From Gammaproteobacteria bacterium (lineage in GTDB: Bacteria > Pseudomonadota > Gammaproteobacteria > Eutrophobiales > Eutrophobiaceae): a DNA stretch of 64,000 nt. This document shows, piece after piece, positions 4,946-57,694 of this stretch; position 1 is the first letter of the stretch, and every line of letters starts with the position of its first letter. The notes below the pieces were generated by a model, which ran no database searches, was not told the DNA's origin, and saw only the letters and a list, made by a program, of their open reading frames with translations. The DNA lies in assembly GCA_965222155.1 (NCBI GenBank), contig CBDCTH010000012.1, positions 3,200,001 through 3,264,000 of the forward strand, read 5' to 3'. A program made the translations under genes and the position numbers.

Positions 4946-5197
4946 GCAATCCAGGAAGGCGTCACGACTTTTGACGCAAGCTGCGGCGGCGTCGGCGGTT
5001 GCCCGTTCGCCCCGGCGGCGACCGGTAACGTGGCGACGGAAGACCTGTTGTACATGATCCATCGCATGGGTCTGAAGACGGGTGTCGATATCGATAAAAT
5101 CATCGAAACGGCAAAATGGCTGGAAGGCCCCCTGGGAACGGCCATGCCGGCCATGGTTACCCGCGCCGGTGTGTTTACCAGCGCAGAAGCGGCGTAG
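4946..5197 (+). pseudogene. Duplicated 3' fragment of the HMG-CoA lyase gene (copy of 2525-2776)
   Basis: 252 bp with 8 substitutions, 5 of them synonymous; no 5' part. Confidence 0.95.
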
Positions 5198-46693: not shown

Positions 46694-47951
46694 ATGAAGA
46701 GGAATACCCGGTATGCACTGGCACTGCTGTTTATGGTGTCGTTCTTCAACTACATGGACCGTTATATGCTGGCCGTGCTGCTACCGGCGATTAAGACAGA
46801 CCTTCAGTTGAGCGATACGGAAATCGGCTTCATCACCGGATTGGCGTTTACCTTGTTCTACGCAACCATGGGTATTCCCATAGCAAGGTTGGCTGATCGT
46901 TACAGCCGTAAAAATATTATTGCCATCGCTCTGTCGGTCTGGAGCGTCATGACCGCGCTATGCGGCCTGGCGCAGAATTTCGTACAACTGGCCGTTGCCA
47001 GGATCATGGTCGGCGTGGGAGAAGCAGGCGCCAGCCCCCCGTCGCATTCCCTGATTGCCGATTTGTTTCCCGTCGAAAAACGCGCCAGGGCGCTTTCCAT
47101 TTATACCCTGGGCGCGCCGGCCGGTGGGCATATTAGTCGGGTTTTTACTGGGAGGCTGGATCACCCAGCTCTACGGCTGGCGCGCCGCGCTGTTTACGGT
47201 CGGCATACCGGGCATTCTGCTGGCGCTGCTGGTTTATCGCAAACTGGATGAGCCGGAGAGAGGCGCGGTAGACGGTCTGTCACGGAAAACGGAAGTGCAG
47301 CCTTTCTGGTTTTCATTAAGAACCCTGATGGCGAGCCCGACTTTCCGTCACCTGTCGTTTGCAACCGGTTTGTACACGGTGCTCTGGCTGGGTGTCGTAC
47401 AATGGTTGCCGTCTTTTTTCACCCGGTCATTCGGACTTGGGATCGGTGAGGTCGGTACCTGGCTGGCGATTATCCTGAGCTCGTCCCAGCTCATCGGCAT
47501 GTTGACCGGCGGCTATCTCGCCGACCGGTTGGGCGCAAGTGATTTGCGCTGGTACGTATGGGTTCCCTCTCTTGCCATACTCGTATCCACTCCCATGTTT
47601 GCCTTGACCTTTCTCACGCAAAATCCGACGCTGTCTTTTCTGTCATTATTCCTGCCTTTCATGATCGGGGTCATGCAGGGCCCGCCGAGCTTTGCCGTAG
47701 CCCAGGGCCTGGCCGACGTGAGAATGCGCGCCATGGCGGCCGCGTTATTGTTACTGATCACCAACCTCGTAGGCGGCGGCATCGGCCCCCAGGCGGTGGG
47801 AATAATGAGTGATTACCTGGCTGCTCAATATAACGAGGATTCCCTGCGCTACTCACTGCTCGCAATCAGCCTGGTTTTCGGCCTGTGGTCGTCCCTGCAC
47901 TATTTCCTGGCAGGGAAAACCATACGCCGGGAGTTTAACAGGCCGGAATAG
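46694..47951 (+). pseudogene. MFS transporter (spinster-like), frameshifted by a CCGG duplication at 47117-47124
   Basis: NYMDR, ARLADRYSRK, GVGEA; removing 4 bp restores APVGILVG. Confidence 0.88.
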
Positions 47952-48134
47952 CGAAAACCGTTTAATTCACCTTCTTTTTTTACTACAATGCCAGCCCTGA
48001 TGAATACTAGCCCGCATTTCTCACCAGTTCGCTTGTGGTCATCGGCTATTTGTTTGCTGTCAATACGTTATGATAACCTGCTCACTATATCGACACAACA
48101 GACTGCGCTTGATGCGCCCTCGCTTGTCTTTTTG

Positions 48135-48206
48135 ATGCGCTCCATCCCTGGAGCGCCCCCTTCGGGCACTCTTCGAGTGTCCAAATCCATTCCAGATGGA
48201 TTTGTG
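48135..48206 (+). repeat. 72-bp four-hairpin element, copy 1 (TG core)
   Basis: TG at 48133 and 48205; stems GCGCTCC/GGAGCGC and CAAATCCAT/ATGGATTTG. Confidence 0.85.
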
Positions 48207-48226
48207 CCGCCAGCGGGCACGTGTTC

Positions 48227-48298
48227 ATTGCGCCCATCCCTGGGCGCAACCCTGCGGGCGGCTGTCGCCGTGCAAATTGTCTGTCCTGACAATTTGTC
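48227..48298 (+). repeat. 72-bp four-hairpin element, copy 2 (TC core)
   Basis: TC at 48225 and 48297; close match to 56571-56642. Confidence 0.9.
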
Positions 48299-48349
48299 CC
48301 TCAACCAGAGCTACGGCTATGCTTTCGGTCGCAGGCACCCGCTGGCGGT

Positions 48350-48421
48350 CACAAATCTGCCAGGAGCAGATTTGGACGCCCGCAGGGCGCCCGTAGGGGG
48401 TGCGCCAGGGAAGGCGCACAT
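48350..48421 (-). repeat. 72-bp four-hairpin element, copy 3 (TG core, reversed)
   Basis: CA at 48350 and 48422; same hairpin layout on the minus strand. Confidence 0.85.
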
Positions 48422-48459
48422 CAAAAATCCTGCGCGATCATCGCATCACCTGGTGAGAA

Positions 48460-50352
48460 ATGCGGGCTAGTGAACAGGAATACGGCGTAATTATCGTCGG
48501 CGGGGGCCATGCCGGGACCGAGGCGGCCCTGGCCTGCTCGCGCATGGGTGTGCGTACCCTGCTGTTGACCCACAGTATCGATACCCTGGGGCAGATGTCG
48601 TGCAACCCGGCCATCGGCGGCATCGGTAAAGGCCACCTGGTGAAGGAGATAGACGCCCTGGGCGGGGTCATGGCCCAGGCGGCGGACCGCAGCGGGATAC
48701 AGTTCCGTATCCTCAATGCCCGCAAGGGTCCTGCGGTACGGGCCACCCGGGCGCAGATTGATCGCAGCTTGTACAAAGGGGTCATCCGGCCCCTGCTGGA
48801 GCGGGCGGAAGACCTGCATTTGTTCCAGCAGGCTGTTGATGACCTGGTTATCGAAGGCGACCGTATCAAGGGCGTAGTGACGCAGACGGGTCTGCGTTTT
48901 CACGCTGCCTGCGTGGTGTTGACGGCGGGCACGTTCCTGGCCGGCAGGATCCACGTGGGCGAAACTGGTTACCAGGGCGGACGGGCGGGTGAGCCGCCGG
49001 CGAATACCCTGGCGGCGCGTTTGCGGGACCTGCCGTTCCGGACTGGACGGTTGAAGACCGGTACGCCGCCACGTCTCGACGGCAGGACCATCGATTACGA
49101 TCAACTCAGCGAGCAACCGGGCGACATCCCTACGCCGGTTTTTTCATTCATGGGAACGACTGGGCAGCACCCGCGGCAGGTCCCATGCCATATCACCCAT
49201 ACCAACGAGCGTACCCATGACATCATTCGCGCCGGGCTGGATCGCTCGCCCATGTATAACGGCGCGATTGAAAGTGTCGGCCCGCGGTATTGCCCCTCGG
49301 TAGAGGATAAGGTCGTCCGCTTTGCCGACAAAACCTCTCACCAGATCTTTATCGAACCGGAAGGACTGAGCAGCGCGGAAGTTTATCCGAACGGCATATC
49401 CACCAGCCTGCCTTTTGACGTGCAACTCGACCTGGTGCGGTCGATCAAGGGGTTTGAGCGGGTACATATCACGCGTCCCGGCTACGCTATCGAATATGAT
49501 TATTTCGATCCCCGCGACCTGCATCCGTGGCTGGAATCCAAGTTCATCTCCGGCTTGTTTTTTGCCGGGCAGGTAAACGGCACGACCGGCTATGAAGAGG
49601 CGGCTTGCCAGGGACTGTTAGCCGGTATCAACGCGGCCTTGCGGATCAGGCAGCGTGAGTCCTGGAGTCCACGTCGGGACCAGGGCTATATCGGTGTGCT
49701 GATCGATGACCTGACCACCCGTGGCGTCACCGAGCCATATCGCATGTTCACCAGCCGGGCGGAATACCGCCTGTTGCTGAGAGAGGACAACGCCGACCTG
49801 CGCCTGACCGGGGTCGGTCGTGAACTCGGCCTGATTGATGAACGGAGGTGGCGCAGTTTCCAGGAAAAGAGCGAGGCTATTACGGCAGAACAGCAACGCC
49901 TGGCCTCCATCTGGATAGCCGCGGATACCCTGCCCGGTGAGGTTGCCGCGCAGGTGTTCGGACAGTCATTGCACAAGGATGTCAATTTGTTGCAGTTACT
50001 GCGCCGTCCCGGCGTCGGTTACGCAGACCTGGCCGGACTCCCCGATTTCGAGCCTGCCGAAATCCCACTGCAGGTGGCAGAGCAAATTGAGGTGCAGGCC
50101 AAGTACCACGGTTATATCGAACGCCAGGAACAGGATATTGCCCGCAACAAACGTGATGAAAATACCCGGTTTCCCGATAACGTCAATTTTCTGTCTGTAT
50201 CCGGCTTGTCAACTGAAGTGGCGCAAAAGCTGTCAGCGCAACGACCGGATACTCTGGGCCAGGCGTCCCGCATCCCGGGGGTGACGCCCGCGGCCGTGTC
50301 TTTGTTGCGGGTGTATTTAAAGAAGCATTCACTGTTAAAAAGCGCCTCATAG
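48460..50352 (+). CDS. mnmG: tRNA uridine 5-carboxymethylaminomethyl modification enzyme MnmG/GidA
   Basis: [59 protein letters not shown]. Confidence 0.98.
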
Positions 50353-50353
50353 T

Positions 50354-51028
50354 ATGGGGACGGAATTGAATTCCGTCCCCGTTGCTCCCATTTCCCCATT
50401 GCACGAAGAACAACTTCTACGACACTTGCACCAGGGCCTGACCGACCTCGGCCTTGATCCGCAGGCCTGTCCTTGCGACGCTTATCTTGCATATATCGAC
50501 CTGCTGGCCAAGTGGAACCGGGCCTACAACCTGACGGGGGTGCGCGAGAAGAAGCAGATGATTCATACCCACGTGCTCGACAGTCTTGCAGTGTTACCTT
50601 ATATTCGGGGAAACCGTTGTCTTGATGCCGGGACCGGCGCGGGTTTGCCCGGTTTCATCCTGGCCCTGACCCAGCCGGAGCAGGAATGGACCTTATTGGA
50701 CTCAAATGGTAAGAAAATCCGTTTCTTACACCAACTCCTGTTTGAGTTGAAGACTGAAAACGTCGAGATCGTCCATTCCCGCGCAGAGAAGTTCTTGTCA
50801 TCCGTTGCGTATTCATCCATTATTTCCAGGGCATTCGGTACGCTGGACGTGTTCTACCGGGCCGTGGAGCATTTATCGCATCCGGGCGCCAGACTACTGG
50901 CGATGAAAGGTAAGCTGCCGGAGGAAGAATTGCAGGAAGTTGCCGGGTTTAAGAAATATATCTCAATACAGGCATTGCAGGTTCCCGGTATTGATGCTCA
51001 CAGAAGCCTGGTGATTTTAGAGCGATAA
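50354..51028 (+). CDS. rsmG: 16S rRNA m7G527 methyltransferase (true start may be TTG 50399, after a REP)
   Basis: KWNRAYNLT, HVLDSL, DAGTGAGLPG, SRAF. Confidence 0.95.
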   Translation: MGTELNSVPVAPISPLHEEQLLRHLHQGLTDLGLDPQACPCDAYLAYIDLLAKWNRAYNLTGVREKKQMIHTHVLDSLAVLPYIRGNRCLDAGTGAGLPGFILALTQPEQEWTLLDSNGKKIRFLHQLLFELKTENVEIVHSRAEKFLSSVAYSSIISRAFGTLDVFYRAVEHLSHPGARLLAMKGKLPEEELQEVAGFKKYISIQALQVPGIDAHRSLVILER

Positions 51029-51082
51029 AAAACAGGATTCAAACTGCGTGAACCTGTGCCGGAATGACGAGACATTGTTGTT

Positions 51083-51877
51083 ATGGGCTTATTCAGCAAA
51101 CAAGATACCAGGATCATGGCGGTCACGAACCAGAAAGGCGGGGTCGGGAAAACGACGACCAGTGTGAACCTGGCCGCATCCCTGGCCTCGGCCAAACGCA
51201 AGGTATTGCTTATCGATCTTGACCCCCAGGGAAATGCCACCATGGGTAGCGGCATCGATAAATCCAGAGTGGAGTATACCGGATATGACGTTCTGGCAGG
51301 AGAGATGAAATTTGCGGAAGTACTGGTGCAGGCGCCGCTATCAGGCTACGACCTGGTGCCGGGCAACTCCGACCTGACCGCCGCTGAAGTGGCCTTGCTG
51401 AAGAAAAAAGCACGGGGAGACCGATTGCGCAATACGATTGCGCCGGTACGCTCCCGCTACCAGTTTATTATTATTGACTGCCCGCCTTCATTGAACATGT
51501 TGACGGTGAATGCATTGGTTGCCGCCGATACCGTTATCATTCCCATACAATGCGAGTATTACGCCCTGGAAGGTTTAACGGCCCTGTTGGAGACGATAGA
51601 AAAAATTCGCAAGTATTATAACCCGCATCTCAAAATCGGCGGGCTGTTGCGCACCATGTATGATGCACGTAACAAACTGTCCTCCCAGGTGTCGGAACAA
51701 TTGCTGAAACACTTTGGCGACAAGGTATACAAGACGATCATCCCGCGCAACGTACGCCTGGCGGAGGCCCCAAGTCATGGCCTCCCTATTATAAAATATG
51801 ACAGGACCTCCCGCGGCGCGATAGCCTATCTGAGCCTGGCCAGTGAAATGCTAAGCCGGGAGGAAAAAGCAGCTTGA
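51083..51877 (+). CDS. parA: Chromosome partitioning ATPase
   Basis: NQKGGVGKTTT, DLDPQGNAT, DCPPSL, IPRNVRLAEAPS. Confidence 0.97.
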   Translation: MGLFSKQDTRIMAVTNQKGGVGKTTTSVNLAASLASAKRKVLLIDLDPQGNATMGSGIDKSRVEYTGYDVLAGEMKFAEVLVQAPLSGYDLVPGNSDLTAAEVALLKKKARGDRLRNTIAPVRSRYQFIIIDCPPSLNMLTVNALVAADTVIIPIQCEYYALEGLTALLETIEKIRKYYNPHLKIGGLLRTMYDARNKLSSQVSEQLLKHFGDKVYKTIIPRNVRLAEAPSHGLPIIKYDRTSRGAIAYLSLASEMLSREEKAA

Positions 51878-51893
51878 ACACAGGGTCAAACGA

Positions 51894-52769
51894 ATGAACA
51901 CACGAAAAAGAGGTTTGGGTAGAGGGTTGGACGCATTATTGGGTTCCGTTCCCGCGGCCGGCATAACCGATACGGATAAGGTGGAGGAACTGCGCACGTT
52001 GCCGGTCGACCTGTTGCAACGGGGCAGCTATCAACCGCGCATGGACTTTGAAAAGGACGCCATGCAGGAATTGGCGGATTCCATCAAAGCGCAGGGTGTG
52101 CTCCAGCCTGTCATGGTCAGGCCCCTGGCCGATTCAGGAAAATTTGAGATCATTGCCGGCGAACGGCGCTGGCGCGCGGCGCAGCTGGCGGGATTGCATG
52201 AGATCCCCGCGGTGGTTAGAAAGCTGGATGATCAAACGGCAATGTGTATCGCTCTTATAGAGAATATCCAGAGGGAAGACCTGAACCCGTTGGAACATGC
52301 CCGCGGTTTGTCACGCTTGTCGGAGGAGTTCGACATGACCCATGACGACATTGCCGAGTCGGTTGGCCGCTCGCGCTCGGCGGTGACAAATATGTTGCGC
52401 CTGCTGGAGTTAAGTGATGAGGTGAAACATTTACTGGAAAGCCGGCAACTGGAGATGGGTCACGCCCGGGCCTTGTTGACCCTGACTGAGCAACAACAGA
52501 AATGGGCAGCCCGGCAAATCATCAAATCGGGCTTATCGGTACGCAAAGCCGAAGCGCTGGTGCGGCGCCTGCAGAACGTAAAGACCACATTGAAATCCGG
52601 GCAAGACCGCGCTGATCCCAATATAAAACTGCTGGAAACGGAGTTGTCCGAACAACTGGGCACAGCCGTTACCGTACAACAGCAAAAGCAAGGTAAGGGC
52701 ACGCTCCGCATCGCTTACAGCTCACTGGCGCAACTGGATGGCATCCTGGCCAGGATCCGCAGAAGATAG
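51894..52769 (+). CDS. parB: Chromosome partitioning protein
   Basis: GLGRGLDALL, YQPR, AGERRWRA, ENIQREDL. Confidence 0.97.
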   Translation: MNTRKRGLGRGLDALLGSVPAAGITDTDKVEELRTLPVDLLQRGSYQPRMDFEKDAMQELADSIKAQGVLQPVMVRPLADSGKFEIIAGERRWRAAQLAGLHEIPAVVRKLDDQTAMCIALIENIQREDLNPLEHARGLSRLSEEFDMTHDDIAESVGRSRSAVTNMLRLLELSDEVKHLLESRQLEMGHARALLTLTEQQQKWAARQIIKSGLSVRKAEALVRRLQNVKTTLKSGQDRADPNIKLLETELSEQLGTAVTVQQQKQGKGTLRIAYSSLAQLDGILARIRRR

Positions 52770-52798
52770 AAATGGGAGACAGGTTCTGAGCCGCATAC

Positions 52799-54901
52799 AT
52801 GCCGCATTTTCTTGACCCGCTGTTGCGCCCGAACTCCATCGCCGTGGTCGGCGCGACCCGGCGCGCGAACGCCGTCGGCAATACAGTGTTGAAAAATCTG
52901 GCGCGGGGAGAGTTCCCGGGCGCTCTCTATGCCGTGAATCCCCGTTACGAGGAGGTCGAGGGTATACCCTGTTATCCGTCCCTGGACGCTTTGCCGCGAC
53001 CTGTCGAACACGTGATCTTTGCCGTCAGCGACCAAAGGCTGGAAGCGGCGCTGGATGAGTCGATTGCCCACGGGATCAAGGCAGCTATGATCTATTCCTC
53101 CCTGGTGCTGGATGACGATACCGCGCCGTTGCTCAGGCAGAGGATTCGGCAAAAGGCGAAACAGGCGAACCTGTTACTTTGCGGCGCCAACAGCATGGGA
53201 TTTTATAACTTTGCCCATAACGTCTGGGTCGGCGGCTTTGCCACCCGCTCCCACCGAAAGCCGGGTAACGTTGCCCTCATCAGTCAATCCGGCGCCGGCA
53301 TGTCCGGCATCCTGGACGCGGATGAACGTATCGATTTCAATTGCGCCGTGTCAACGGGACTGGAACTGACCGTCACGGCTGAAGACTATCTTGATTACGC
53401 ACTGGAACAGCCTGAAACCCGGGTCGTCGGCCTGTTCCTGGAAACCAGCCGCTATCCGGCGAAACTGGTCGCGGGATTTAAAAAAGCCATTGAGCGAAAC
53501 ATCCCCATCGTTGTCGTCAAAGTCGGTCGAACCGAACTGGCGGCGCAACTGACCGTATCCCATTCCGGCGCCCTGGCCGGGAGCGATACCGGTTATGGCG
53601 CCATTTTCGACCGTTACGGGGTACAACGCGTTGACGATATGGAGCAACTGGCAACGGCATTGATCATGTTTGCCCAGCCCCACCCCGTCTGCTCCGGCGG
53701 CATCGTTACCATCCATGACTCCGGTGGCGAACGACAATTGATTATCGATATGGCCGACAAACTGGGGACGCCCCTGGCCGACATTTCCGCAGGAACGACA
53801 AAAACACTGGAAGCATTATTGGACCCCGGCCTGGCGGCGGTAAACCCCCTGGACGTCTGGAGCGCCGGCGGGCCCGATTATGAGGAGAGACTCGAAGGCT
53901 GTTTTGCCGCCTTGTTAAAAGATAAAGATACGGCCCTGGGCGCCATCGTCCATGACCGGACCGCTCATGGCCGGATTTATCCTGAATACATCCGTCATCT
54001 CCGCAAGGGCCATGCAGCTTCCGGCAAGCCGGTTTTCCTGGTTTCCAACAGACAAGGGACGGGCGCCGATACCAACGTCGTTGAAACAACCCGCGCCGGC
54101 TTTCCCGTCCTGGACGGCATCGCTTCCTTCCTGAGCGGCGCGAAATGCATGATGGCCTACCGTGATTTCCTGGCCCGGTCCGTTAGCAGGCCGCCCGAGC
54201 TGTCCCGGTCTGTTTTGACGAAGTGGCGCGCCCGGTTGGCCGAGACAGACGTAGGCGATGAAATCGAGGCTAACCGGTTTTTGCATGAGTGCGGCATTCC
54301 CATGGTAAATACGTGGCTGGTAAATAATGAGGATGAATTAGCAAACCTGGGACCGGACTTGAGCTATCCGGTCGTGGTCAAGACAGCGGTACCGGGTATC
54401 CGCCATAAGTCGGACGTGGATGGGGTCAGGCTGAATGTGCGTGATGAGACGGAATTACTGCATGTTTATCGCGATTTATCCGGGCGCCTGGGTAGCCGGG
54501 CTGTGGTTGCCCCCATGCTGAATGCCCCTGGTGTGGAAATGATCCTCGGTCTTGCCGCTGATGAGCAGTTTGGTCCTATGGTCGTGATGGGTATTGGCGG
54601 TGTTCATGCAGAATTGTTACGGGATTTTGTCACCGTTGCGCCACCGTTCGACGCTGCCACGGCGTTCCGCTGCCTGGATAGATTGAAAATGAGAAAACTA
54701 ATGAACGGCATGCGCGGCGCCCCGGCTGTGGACGTCCCGGCCTTCTGTGAAGCGGCGGCTATTCTATCAGTAATGGCGCTGGAGTTCGCGGATTTGCTGA
54801 CAGAAGTGGATATCAACCCGATCAAGGTCCTTGAACAGGGTTGCGTAGGTCTGGATGCCCTCGTAGCCGGAAAGACAAACGCCGGAAAGACGCCAAAATG
54901 A
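52799..54901 (+). CDS. Acetate/acyl-CoA ligase (ADP-forming) family
   Basis: PNSIAVVGA, SQSG, SHSGALAG, HKSDVDGV, DINP. Confidence 0.92.
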   Translation: MPHFLDPLLRPNSIAVVGATRRANAVGNTVLKNLARGEFPGALYAVNPRYEEVEGIPCYPSLDALPRPVEHVIFAVSDQRLEAALDESIAHGIKAAMIYSSLVLDDDTAPLLRQRIRQKAKQANLLLCGANSMGFYNFAHNVWVGGFATRSHRKPGNVALISQSGAGMSGILDADERIDFNCAVSTGLELTVTAEDYLDYALEQPETRVVGLFLETSRYPAKLVAGFKKAIERNIPIVVVKVGRTELAAQLTVSHSGALAGSDTGYGAIFDRYGVQRVDDMEQLATALIMFAQPHPVCSGGIVTIHDSGGERQLIIDMADKLGTPLADISAGTTKTLEALLDPGLAAVNPLDVWSAGGPDYEERLEGCFAALLKDKDTALGAIVHDRTAHGRIYPEYIRHLRKGHAASGKPVFLVSNRQGTGADTNVVETTRAGFPVLDGIASFLSGAKCMMAYRDFLARSVSRPPELSRSVLTKWRARLAETDVGDEIEANRFLHECGIPMVNTWLVNNEDELANLGPDLSYPVVVKTAVPGIRHKSDVDGVRLNVRDETELLHVYRDLSGRLGSRAVVAPMLNAPGVEMILGLAADEQFGPMVVMGIGGVHAELLRDFVTVAPPFDAATAFRCLDRLKMRKLMNGMRGAPAVDVPAFCEAAAILSVMALEFADLLTEVDINPIKVLEQGCVGLDALVAGKTNAGKTPK

Positions 54902-55057
54902 TCTTTATTGTTAACTGACCATACAGGCGCCGGTAAGGATCATCCCGCCGCCATCATGCCGGCACAGTCCCGCCGTCGTCATGCTGGCGAATACCGGAAT
55001 CCAGTAAACAAAATGCTCATTACAGCCCCGTATCCGGATACCCGCATTGTCCCTCTC

Positions 55058-55292
55058 CAGCAGGTTGGTGAGTCCCCCGTGCAACCCATCCCAGCGTTGC
55101 GCATCACTGACCTCATCCCGGTCAATGCTCAATTCGGTCTCACCCTTGACCTTGAGGTACTTCTTATAGCCGTAGTTGTTCGGCAAGTCTTTGGGATTTT
55201 TGCTCTTGCTCAGTTTTTGAGCAGGTTACTGAGTGCGCGCTCCCGGTTGCGGCGGTCTTTCCCGGCCCGCACCGGGGCATAGCTGACCACCC
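55058..55292 (-). pseudogene. Internal fragment of a second IS1634-family transposase
   Basis: VVSYAPVRAGKDRRNRERAL ... NNYGYKKYLKV ... RWDGLHG. Confidence 0.7.
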
Positions 55293-55317
55293 CCCGGCGA
55301 TTTCTGCTGAAGCCAGC

Positions 55318-55752
55318 TCAGCTACACCGCGCGTCGCCGCCCTCATTACAACAAGTCCACCAGCGAAAATAAGCGCTAGACTCTCCGTCGCCCATACCAT
55401 GCCTCCACTTTTGATAAGCCGTTGCATTATATGTGCCCCCAGGGTCGAGTGTAAAGAGCTCGTCCGAACCTTTATTGACAACGACTCTCACCTTTACGGG
55501 GTAACTGCATTGGTTCCTGGCATGAAGTTCCTTGGGGTATAAGCAGAGATTCGTGCTCGGGTGAGCACAACGTTTGGAGTCAATACGTCCACTGTCATAA
55601 TTAATAAGTTTAAGCTTATAACAAGCGGGGGGCGCCCGGAACGAGGACCTGGAACACTCTGCGATACTCGCTGAGGTAAACAGGCACGACACCACAAACG
55701 CGCCAGCCAATGTAACCCACCGGAAGGGGGAGAGTTGAGTTATGTGCATCAT
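55318..55752 (-). CDS. Secreted cysteine-rich hypothetical protein
   Basis: Signal peptide ending ASIA; 8 Cys in the mature part; GGAGG RBS. Confidence 0.7.
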   Translation of the reverse strand: MMHITQLSPFRWVTLAGAFVVSCLFTSASIAECSRSSFRAPPACYKLKLINYDSGRIDSKRCAHPSTNLCLYPKELHARNQCSYPVKVRVVVNKGSDELFTLDPGGTYNATAYQKWRHGMGDGESSAYFRWWTCCNEGGDARCS

Positions 55753-55951
55753 GATTGCCTCCGGTAATGATCTTAGTCATCTTGGATTGTTACAACAGTA
55801 CCTTCTTGTCAAAACATGGTCCTGTTCTCCTTCAACGCATCCTCTTCAGGAGTCAGTAACTGTGTAAAATGACACTGTTTTTATTATACCTTTTCCTAAG
55901 AGGTTTGTAAGTGAACACCCGGATACAACACACCAATTAAATCAAATTTGA

Positions 55952-57276
55952 CAGGGCAACCGCATACTTTTATCCGGCTTGCCCAAATAGGATTTCAGCC
56001 CGTCTCGTATCACTCCACCCGGCCTGCTTGAGCTTCCCCCGCATACTGTTCTTGTGTGGGTGCAGCCGTGCCAGGTTCAAACAGAAGCGCCGGATTATCC
56101 CCACGTTCTCCGCCCCATTGCCCCGTCGTAGCCGACAGTCATCTTCCTTGAACGCCACGTCCAGCACCCAATGCGCCTTGTTCTCCACGTCCCAATGCTG
56201 ACGTATCCCGCGCGCCACCCGCACCGCAGCCACCGGCAGGGAACTGATAGAGTACTGTGTCTCGGTCTCCATGTCTTGCCCCGGCAGGTGTCGTTCCCGC
56301 TCCATCTCAATCACCGTTTGCAACCCCGGCCACTTGACTGCCTCACTACTCCATGCCGTCACCCGCAGTTGCCGACAGACACGCCGCGCCACCCGGCCAT
56401 GCCCCCCATCGACTTACCTCTACACCGCCAACGTCGCCGGCTTATCGCGCGTAACCTTATGAAAGTACGCCTTTATTTCCCGTTGTAAGGTCTTATGATT
56501 GGCCTTCAGACACAACGTGTAATCGCCCCCCTTCTCGTGTATCTTCCGGGCAATCTTCTTCTGCGTGCTCATTGCGCCCGTCCCTGGGCGCAACCCGTCG
56601 GGCGGCTGGCGCCGTGCAAATCGTCTGTCCTGACGATTTGTCATCGCATCCGCAGTAATATGTGCTCCTTTGACGTGCAACACATCCAACATCTCCAACA
56701 CCGATGCCTGCTCGTTCTTCTTCCCCTTCGACTTCATCTGTGCCAGCACCAGCCCGCATTCATGGCCCCAGGCCGTGATGCTGTGCAAGGCCGCCTGCCT
56801 CTCTCCGTCATGGGAACTTTGTTGAGGTCTTCCCATCCAGGGCAATCTGCGCCTGGCCCTGCTCACGCCGGACCGCATTCACCCAATTCAAAAACGCCCG
56901 GTTGAACTGCACCGGGTCCAGCGCCCGCACTACCCGCGCAATCGTATCATCCACCGGTATCCCGTTAGCAAACGGCCGGTAGTGGCGTAACCAAGCCAGC
57001 TTCTCATCACCAAAATCCTTGCTGTCTTTCCAGCCCGCCGCCCCCGACAGCACCGCACTCACTGTCAAAAACAGACTGTCCAACAGCGCATGTTTCATAT
57101 TGATATCACGACGCGGGTCATCAATCGTGGCCACATGCCAGTAAACTCATGGTTTTCTCCTCAAGTTGGGGGTAACACTGCTATGATCCCCACAAAATTC
57201 ATGAGTTCACCGCTTGTTCATAACTTATTGGACTAAAAAACTACATCCTTATGACAAAAAGCATGATCTTGCCCTG
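55952..57276 (-). mobile_element. ISAs1-family element with frameshifted transposase
   Basis: CAGGGCAA termini, 10-bp TSD TCAAATTTGA; DPRR, GIPVDDT, IALDGK, KANH, HWDVEN..HWVLDV.F.ED in shifting frames. Confidence 0.92.
56571..56642 (+). repeat. 72-bp four-hairpin element, copy 4, inserted in frame in the ISAs1 transposase
   Basis: Splits ADAM|STQKK with 24 extra codons; TC duplicated at 56569 and 56641. Confidence 0.92.
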
Positions 57277-57352
57277 TCAAATTTGAAAACTTCAGTGACC
57301 AGATGATTTACAAAACTGATAATGATTACTACAATTACCATTTTTAGATAAA

Positions 57353-57694
57353 TTGGTAATTATTGTGACCAGTATAAAATCAGGCAAGAAACGGACTGCT
57401 GTCGTCTTCCCTAAAAACCGACGCGTACTGGAGCAGCTTGGCGAAAATATCAAACTGGCGTGTAAGCGTAGAGGCTATACCCAGATCTTGATATCGGAAC
57501 GCACGGGCTTGAGCCGCGTAACCATCCGCAAGATCGAGAAGGGGGATCCTACCGTTTCCATCGGTCATTATCTGGCCGTGCTTGGCGTGCTCGGACTTGC
57601 CGATGATCTTGCCAGGGTCGCCGGCGACGATGAACTGGGGCGGAAGCTTCAGGATATCAAGCTGATGGGCAAAAACGAGGGGCGCAACCAATGA
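57353..57694 (+). CDS. XRE/HTH antitoxin (HipB-like)
   Basis: LGENIKLACKRRG.TQ..ISERTGLSRVTIRKIEKGDP; overlaps a HipA-like start. Confidence 0.85.
   Translation: MVIIVTSIKSGKKRTAVVFPKNRRVLEQLGENIKLACKRRGYTQILISERTGLSRVTIRKIEKGDPTVSIGHYLAVLGVLGLADDLARVAGDDELGRKLQDIKLMGKNEGRNQ

Follow-up and report, generated by a model that had tools for sequence, protein, structure and literature searches.

Four-hairpin palindromic units of about 72 nucleotides as a probable family of very small non-autonomous mobile DNA in Gammaproteobacteria

Rickettsia palindromic elements (RPEs) are repeats of ~150 bp in Alphaproteobacteria, and the excerpted account of R. conorii places its RPEs mostly in open reading frames (ORFs), each element encoding a conserved peptide (PMC10969869). 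Repetitive extragenic palindromic (REP) sequences, as portrayed in parts of three further accounts, are single imperfect palindromes of 20-40 nt, and the gene for the REP-associated tyrosine transposase (RAYT) is flanked by its own REPs (PMC3116915, PMC2817692, PMC8266576). Here we describe a different palindromic repeat, a string of four hairpins typically 72 nt long, found in a 64,000-nucleotide stretch of a gammaproteobacterial assembly (GCA_965222155.1, contig CBDCTH010000012.1, positions 3,200,001 to 3,264,000; hereafter the window) that belongs to a 4.55-Mb, 12-contig genome (G000). A first-pass annotation had proposed that the repeat is a non-autonomous, structure-conserving insertion element without terminal inverted repeats (TIRs), and the analysis reported here supports that proposal. 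Most probably, the units make up a diversified family of mobile DNA elements that are very small and non-autonomous, measuring ~72 nt in the genus and 60-84 nt elsewhere, and that are mobilised in trans.

Four copies had been annotated in the window, each of 72 nt and sharing one layout, and all were confirmed in the sequence. The copies, together with the repeat and the gene remnant that host them, are as follows (for the preferred boundaries, see below).

48135..48206, + strand: element copy 1, subtype A, 72 nt; preferred boundaries TGAT...ATTTG, 48133-48204
48227..48298, + strand: element copy 2, subtype B, 72 nt; preferred boundaries 48225-48296
48350..48421, - strand: element copy 3, subtype C, 72 nt; preferred boundaries 48352-48423
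56571..56642, + strand: element copy 4, subtype B, 72 nt, in an ISAs1-type transposase remnant; preferred boundaries 56569-56640
48008..48469, no strand assigned: host composite miniature inverted-repeat transposable element (MITE), 462 nt, TA-flanked, with TIRs that start TAGCCCGCATTTCTCACCAG; holds copies 1-3
55970..57134, - strand: remnant of an ISAs1-family DDE transposase gene in three reading frames, with ORFs of 140, 152 and 108 aa

When folded as RNA, each window copy yields three or four predicted hairpins at -34 to -40 kcal/mol. A fourth subtype, D, is recognised outside the window set. The MITE that hosts copies 1-3 has 20-nt inverted ends with TA on each side, and copies 1 and 3, the two preceded by TG, do occupy the mirror-image arms of one inverted repeat, as had been described. 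Identical duplicates of copy 2 lie at C12:932612 and C4:462041, within the same composite.

Comparison of filled with empty alleles reveals a discrete unit with precise ends. Empty sites had been recommended as a check, and they were found both in paralogues and in orthologues of other species. Alignment of the ISAs1 remnant with its paralogues shows a gap of exactly 72 nt in place of copy 4 in 5/5 paralogous copies; the earlier description of copy 4 as an insertion is thereby confirmed. The host gene is already split in three frames. A further ISAs1 copy, near C12:2605800, carries an independent insertion elsewhere in the gene that measures 72+29 nt, with a 29-nt mini-hairpin in the first loop of the unit. 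For the units within the host MITE, the genome has 33 empty versions of the copy 1 site (CTTGTCTTTTTG joined directly to CCGCCAGCGGG, or a variant of it), 45 of the copy 2 site, in other host-MITE copies, and 7 of the copy 3 site. Three further unit sites in the MITE have 34, 46 and 23 empty versions.

Outside these repeats, the intergenic DNA orthologous to that around the unit at C4:125665-125736 is empty in two other genomes (G007 and G002). The gene that holds the unit at C1:47969-48040 encodes a homologue of formylmethanofuran dehydrogenase subunit B (FwdB-like) and keeps an open frame of 437 codons. It matches TIGR03129 at 224 bits, short of the curated cut-off, and the match comes in two parts, breaking off at the unit and resuming there; no match spans the unit among the 19 genus genomes with a match, and the flanks are contiguous in 5/5 genomes aligned. 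In an IS5-like DDE transposase, a unit lies in frame in three copies. In nadE (L176, C12:481388-481624), a 237-nt in-frame composite of a 165-nt MITE and one 72-nt unit divides the NAD_synthase match in two and leaves a 626-codon frame open; the composite is missing from the listed nadE flanks of 22 other genus genomes, as alignment with G031 confirmed. Altogether, 150 full copies from G000 and other genomes represent 35 distinct flank contexts.

Two individual sites deserve separate description. In G014, the closest relative, the empty FwdB site (L169, near G014:C1:3890825) holds three extra bases, TTTGATGCGG, which resemble the first bases of the element and could be a footprint or a coincidence. 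The unit at C12:748224-748295 (L118) lies, as read by eye, between an apparent upstream stop and the start of a gene beginning MLDTNIVS; degraded versions at the same place in G006 and G018 indicate that this insertion is old.

The structure of the unit was analyzed in an alignment of 65 distinct 72-nt copies, four from the window and 61 from other genomes. Read 5' to 3', the unit opens with T(C/G)AT and continues into hairpin 1, whose loop is of the ATCCNTGG type. Next come the mini-hairpin CCC-NNN-GGG, which never varies, and a third hairpin that does; GT(C/G)C then leads into an AAAT/ATTT hairpin whose loop contains TCC, and the unit closes with ATTTG. In this four-helix structure 98.7% of 1430 cells pair, and 12 of the 22 pairs are changed on both sides, in 126 cells. 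None of 500 shuffles matched the observed values on any of five measures, and pairing falls to 25-42% when the partner is slid by 1-3 columns. The compensatory stem changes first noticed among the window copies are thereby confirmed; two parts, the CCC/GGG mini-hairpin and pairs 1-5 of the last stem, are invariant and uninformative on structure. Only 4 of the 1430 cells are G-U. So few G-U cells beside 126 double-change cells fit palindromes kept at the DNA level and argue against the RNA fold as the sole object of selection. The unpaired positions that stay constant are AT at the 5' end, ATCCNT in the first loop, TCC in the last loop and TTTGT at the 3' end. As the annotation had it, TIRs are absent: none was found in the 65-copy alignment, where the ends read T(C/G)AT(T)GCG... 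and ...ATTTG and the hairpins are internal only.

Units are themselves nested with other small repeats and with one another. The hairpin 1 loop hosts mini-hairpins of 27, 29 and 56 nt (mini-hairpins occur genome-wide, e.g., at C12:215933 and C4:98979) that end in GGGGCAGGCT, a motif present at 164 genome sites, many of them at the centres of other palindromes. Some copies carry the mini-hairpin with its loop in inverted orientation. Subtype D occurs reversed inside type B, between the third and fourth hairpins, at ATT^TGCAC; two units stand head to tail at locus L037; and the mosaic repeats of the genome hold units in alternating orientation with short linkers. This last arrangement would be expected if the units were palindromic modules kept by the host, akin to REP sequences or bacterial interspersed mosaic elements (BIMEs) with protein-binding, terminator or mRNA-stability roles, whose patchiness arose by recombination, gene conversion and deletion among mosaic repeats. 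Constant loops and double-changed stems over a range wider than the genus are also consistent with host-kept modules. However, such modules would not account for precise single-unit insertions in coding DNA (the FwdB-like gene, ISAs1 twice and the IS5-like transposase), for units in unrelated unique intergenic DNA with empty orthologues, or for tandem insertion and self-nesting. Copy number ranges from 0 to 80 between species of one genus, and the 35 different flank contexts indicate that extended flank homology with a donor is not general. We consider the host-module explanation improbable, and read the units as mobile DNA in what follows.

To determine copy number, an nhmmer profile built from the four window copies was run on the whole genome, giving 120 matches at E<=1e-3 and 136 at E<=1. 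Sixty-six of the 120 are full length, 37 start at model position 12-15 because another small element occupies the hairpin 1 loop, 12 have a cut or an interruption on their 3' side, and the remaining 5 are partials of other kinds. Uninterrupted parsed copies in G000 are exactly 72 nt long in 60/66 cases, with the others at 61, 66, 70, 71, 71 and 82 nt. In a second genome, G005, a covariance model (R1) returned 58 matches at E<=1e-6, and the match lengths (18 at 72 nt, 30 at 73 nt) exaggerate the length variation, since most of the other 73-nt matches among fetched loci are type B units interrupted by a reversed subtype D whose end hairpin was accepted. True uninterrupted 73-mers number 7 among 20 fetched loci, and with at least 7 such copies in G005 a length of 72 nt is typical rather than fixed. 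The 73 loci taken from other genomes were retrieved by a type-B pattern with fixed spacing, so that length constancy in that set is partly built in.

The length had been suggested to be selected for tolerance of coding insertions, an idea that fares unevenly. It is favoured by the in-frame units in the FwdB-like, IS5-like and nadE genes, and 72, 165 and 237 nt are all multiples of three. Counting against it are the 73-nt and 60-84-nt copies, the nested mini-hairpins of 27, 29 and 56 nt, and the ISAs1 gene, in which both the version with copy 4 and its empty closest paralogue are already split in three frames. Among distant relatives, 11/25 lengths are divisible by three versus 8 expected, which is no clear excess. 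Relative to dinucleotide shuffles, the type B consensus, open in 5/6 frames, is unremarkable (P=0.58) and the A/C consensus, open in 6/6, is marginal (P=0.028). The peptide read from the unit changes with frame and strand.

Inspection of the termini places the boundaries of the unit and its target. Type B is preceded by TC in 107/108 copies and by GC in one, and types A/C by TG in 37/42 and AG in 5/42. The last two bases are TC in 101 and TT in 7 of the 108 type B copies, as opposed to TC in 24, TG in 17 and TA in one of the 42 A/C copies. An equal dinucleotide on both sides, as originally described, is therefore characteristic of type B (TC...TC in 100/108) but not of types A/C, where it holds in just 13/42 and 23 copies read TG...TC. 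The reported covariation of the base before the last stem with the terminal dinucleotide breaks down in these TG...TC copies; that base is a subfamily marker. Because one dinucleotide follows subtype, it is assigned to the element, and the varying one to the target; the unit is then best written as T(C/G)AT...ATTTG, entering between a T and a following T(C/G). These boundaries are favoured over AT...GT(C/G) by three informative TG...TC cases: the FwdB site, where G031 equals the restored site with one substitution; the MITE site 'C2', where 4/23 empty copies match exactly; and C4:125665.

All 35 contexts have T at position +1. At +2, 25 of them have C, 7 have G and 3 have T; A stands at +3 in 20 contexts and T at -1 in 23. 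The proposal of sequence-targeted insertion is thus borne out as a short preference, T^T(C/G). Type B frequently lands in TCAT, a copy of its own first four bases, and the outcome resembles a 4-nt repeat. A fixed-length target-site duplication is absent: left and right dinucleotides are unequal in 29/42 A/C and 8/108 B copies, and apparent repeats range from 0 to 5 nt. Targeting of hairpin loops was rejected as a candidate, the mean best stem being 3.49 bp at 35 rebuilt sites versus 3.41 bp at 5000 random TT(C/G) sites.

These junctions bear directly on whether the units are moved by an IS110-family, bridge-RNA-guided enzyme or another site-specific recombinase, with a dinucleotide core common to a circular donor and the target, as the annotation had suggested. 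IS110 elements are known to aim at repeats. The paired TC of type B (100/108) fits such a core, and the genome encodes two IS110-type genes, one of them beside a host-MITE copy. In opposition, the dinucleotides are unequal in the 29 A/C copies noted above, the 35 contexts share just T-T-(C/G)-(A), far below the ~14-nt demand of a guide, and both IS110-type genes are single copy and not adjacent to units. An IS110-like recombinase is accordingly very improbable as the source of units that we read as mobilised in trans.

The family extends well beyond G000. A scan of species-representative genomes with an exact pattern identified at least 73 loci, all Gammaproteobacteria metagenome-assembled genomes among the matches listed. 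The covariance model, whose construction had been advised, recovered the family across the genus and further: with up to the best 81 candidates scored per genome, model R1 finds it in 21/22 other genus genomes at 1 to 76 copies each, in 8/14 other genera of the same family and in 8/24 genomes of other families of the class (16/38 together). Genomes rich in copies are G000, G005, G010, G014 and G031, whereas G017, G035, G040 and G044 hold none. The plasmid collection gave no match, and the phage collection gave two chance-level Salmonella matches and nothing relevant. Rfam gave 0 matches at gathering score over the whole window and three chance-level matches (E 0.6-2) in 47950-48500, in agreement with the view that this is not a catalogued Rfam family. 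The literature searched yielded no description of such a four-hairpin unit.

Five genomes of other families contain 25 units of the same architecture, 60-84 nt long, and these occupy a second habitat. They are flanked by ...GGATT and (T)CGAACC, that is, by the interrupted T-loop of a partial tRNA 3'-end copy, and the insertion point is again T^TC. A tRNA gene lies within ~250 nt at 17/25 loci (Arg, Val, Gln, Ser, Phe, Lys, Asn), and three more loci hold tRNA fragments uncalled by ARAGORN. The partial copy matches the neighbouring tRNA, and partial 3' end, element and trailer can repeat in tandem (L094, L097, L098, L102, L113; G023, G055). At the tandem loci of G023 and G055 a short inverted copy of the T-arm (GAACC...GGTTC) follows right after the element. 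The neighbours of the tRNA-linked copies are housekeeping genes, with no integrase among 19 ORFs scanned. A tRNA linkage was also considered for G000 and rejected, as just 3 profile matches have a tRNA gene no more than 600 nt away.

Location just downstream of tRNA genes, where the units would be co-transcribed, raises the alternative of a structured RNA or an RNA-copied unit: either a family of small RNA genes, or target-primed reverse transcription leaving an untidy 5' junction. Four conserved hairpins with strong covariation would suit an RNA, as would a 5' base that varies between filled and empty alleles beside a clean 3' junction. In contrast, no Rfam match appears even at E<=5, the 4 G-U cells stand against 126 double changes, and units lie in both orientations relative to neighbouring genes as well as inside ORFs. 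An RNA-based origin is thus quite improbable, and we return to mobile DNA acted upon in trans.

The search for a mobilising enzyme covered HUH and IS110 candidates. G000 encodes two intact, RAYT-like Y1 (HUH) genes and one Y1 fragment. The two RAYT-like genes (222 and 285 aa), at L001 (1415-2287) and L002 (628-2022), are each bracketed by their own inverted repeats, which are probably separate REP families of the genome. No unit copy lies beside the Y1 genes of G000, and their flanking repeats are unrelated to the unit. A search for Y2 enzymes (PF04986, IS91-type) gave 0/5 genomes, with a model that was equally silent in 14/14 control genomes and so had no positive control. The suggested check for copies flanking an IS110 or HUH transposase gene found none.

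A Y1 HUH transposase that moves the units as single-stranded DNA, whether as IS200/IS605-type derivatives or as partners of a REP-like RAYT, had been a second suggestion. Read on the complementary strand, insertion would occur 3' of ...GA, with the element ending ...AT(G/C)A. In the IS200/IS605 family, the cleavage sites at the left flank and at the 3' end of the element resemble each other. The units reproduce this relation: the complementary-strand left flank ends GA, CA or AA in 35/35 contexts, and the 3' end of the element, TGA/TCA, resembles it. End hairpins, the lack of TIRs and of target duplication, a fixed orientation to a short target, and the two intact Y1 genes of G000 are in keeping with such a transposase. 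Nevertheless, both Y1 genes sit in the unrelated repeats described above with no adjoining copy, the two end hairpins differ in sequence, and G005 (58 copies), G003 (25) and G008 (15) carry units while giving no Y1 match; the G005 assembly is one contig and 98% complete. G005 also has no replication-strand bias (15+/16- and 11+/16-, with the origin assumed at mnmG), which does not favour a lagging-strand, single-strand mechanism. Mobilisation by a HUH/RAYT-like Y1 enzyme is therefore unlikely.

The reading that accommodates most of these data remains a small unit moved by an enzyme supplied in trans. A discrete unit would enter between T and T(C/G) with no fixed target duplication, and a trans-acting enzyme, encoded elsewhere, would read the hairpins. 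The hairpins with their constant loops may serve as the recognition features for the mobilising protein, and the reaction may take place on unwound or single-stranded DNA, as in the 'peel and paste' mode of HUH-type elements. We suggest tentatively that the enzyme may belong to a class with no established link to transposition. Many G000 copies, including the three upstream of mnmG, would have spread passively, as passengers of the 165-462-nt, TA-flanked MITE. A broader scheme is conceivable, although doubtful: in an undescribed transposition system, a chromosomal enzyme other than a recognised transposase might bind the two TCC-loop hairpins and paste the unit into T^T(C/G), with TTCGA of the tRNA T-loop, a sequence conserved universally, as the ancestral and preferred target. 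The element might then persist through partial tRNA 3'-end duplicates that it uses or perhaps creates, having escaped in this genus to other repeats and coding sequences.

Several observations weigh against mobilisation in trans as just outlined. The Y1-negative genomes and the absent strand bias of G005 are among them, as is the finding that no copy flanks a transposase gene and no enzyme was found. No autonomous copy is apparent either: in G000, a search 261-5000 nt downstream of the left ends met no right end, bar one explained case. Nor does a simple insertion predict the outcome of six comparisons in which filled and empty alleles carry different bases just 5' of the unit. Three sites change from T (empty) to C (filled): copy 4, C4:125665 and a dRS3-like repeat of G061. 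Three MITE sites change from C, A or CC (empty) to T (filled), and in four other filled/empty comparisons the base is unchanged. The G061 repeat (GTCATTCCCGCG...GCGGGAATCC) carries the unit at its foot in 11 filled copies versus 67 empty ones, the base before the insertion being T in 67/67 empty copies and C in the filled copies seen, bar L012. The altered base may reflect either a choice of rare target variants or a footprint of the reaction.

Population data add to the same side of the balance. Contigs of four public sequencing runs were compared with 47500-57400. Those of runs X4 (2) and X12 (1) join 48007 to 48470, skipping the whole 462-nt MITE with ends TA..TA and a 34-nt side, and are probably derived from related organisms. 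Within the MITE, the joints have sides of 20-44 nt and a paralogous origin, for which reason no single-unit polymorphism can be claimed at the locus. The run contigs accordingly show just paralogous empty sites and whole-MITE absence; they reveal no excised circle or within-population polymorphism, and such contigs cannot show rare excision products. Finally, independent events are far fewer than copies because the MITE carries elements along.

The surroundings of the window copies include one further feature.

48460..50352, + strand: mnmG/gidA (Pfam GIDA, E=9.7e-166), with its start codon in the right end of the MITE

The mnmG/gidA gene takes its ATG and first codons (48460) from this MITE end. 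In the G007 orthologue, only ~74 nt separate the major facilitator superfamily (MFS) gene from mnmG, without the MITE; G007, though MITE-free, keeps a similar end-like stretch directly before the mnmG start codon. The host-MITE end was also considered as a mimic of a tRNA 3' end and rejected, the best match to 46 genome tRNAs having 5 mismatches in 16. The ISAs1 copies at 55970-57134 and C12:1165557-1166781 (the closest paralogue) have the same three-frame split, which points to shared frameshifts, programmed shifts or assembly errors.

Few components of bacterial genomes are understood as poorly as mobile elements of <100 nt that have neither terminal repeats nor an enzyme known to move them. 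The present family is unusually clean study material, combining exact empty and filled alleles, four subtypes, covarying stems, constant loops and self-nesting; survival in frame in housekeeping genes (FwdB-like, NAD synthetase) and a second, tRNA T-loop habitat add to its value. The question of the mobilising enzyme becomes testable by phyletic profiling and simple biochemical assays. For annotation, inserts of 24 and 79 residues in conserved proteins of these genomes should be recognised as repeat-derived.

Comparison with described systems locates the units among, rather than within, known classes. With RPEs, as far as the excerpted account goes, they share the form of small palindromic repeats in protein-coding genes with the frame intact (here FwdB-like, IS5-like and nadE). 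They differ in being half as long, in having no sequence relation and in lying mostly in intergenic DNA or in other repeats; most of the 35 contexts are of these kinds, as opposed to predominantly in-frame positions in ORFs with a conserved peptide. The likeness to REP sequences and REPINs, again as partially described, consists of abundant short palindromes that alternate in mosaics, have no TIRs and presumably depend on an enzyme acting in trans, in genomes with RAYT-like Y1 genes. In contrast, each unit strings together four unlike hairpins in a fixed order, the genes of RAYT type lie in other repeats, and no RAYT gene flanked by and co-occurring with the unit was found in the genomes searched. 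Nostoc small dispersed repeats (SDRs), in the work of Elhai et al. in 2008, are reportedly cyanobacterial single-hairpin elements of 21-27 nt that nest within one another and within MITEs and for which no enzyme is known. Nesting is alike here; the unit is three times longer, with four hairpins and a T^T(C/G) target, and the 27-56-nt mini-hairpins in its first loop are closer in size to SDRs.

Correia elements of Neisseria have 26-bp TIRs and a TA duplication. The genome studied here does contain dRS3-like ATTCCNGC...GCNGGAAT repeats and mosaics of short modules, as in Neisseria, but the 72-nt unit has neither the 26-bp TIRs nor the TA duplication. More generally, it lacks both the TIRs and the fixed-length target duplication that define MITEs. 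Identical core dinucleotides and an extended guided target, the hallmarks of IS110, are likewise not seen, with just 3-4 target positions conserved. Helitrons start with 5' TC and have a hairpin at the 3' end, features that the TC start and the terminal hairpin of the unit call to mind. With these elements, IS91 and IS200/IS605 derivatives, the unit shares asymmetry, hairpins near the ends, the lack of TIRs and duplication, and a very short specific target. It departs from them in that its hairpins lie 0-3 nt from the ends and its target is conserved mainly 3' of the insertion (annotated strand). Searches for a cognate Y1 or Y2 gene bearing the same ends gave none, the Y2 search having had no positive control, and G000 holds no full-length relative with the same ends that encodes TnpA. 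The architecture itself, with subterminal hairpins, no TIR, no duplication and a short target, is that of IS200/IS605. Because the units depart from MITEs, REPINs, IS110 passengers and RPEs in the features that define each, and agree with IS200/IS605 elements just in architecture, we class them as small non-autonomous palindromic mobile DNA, whose mechanism is possibly new.

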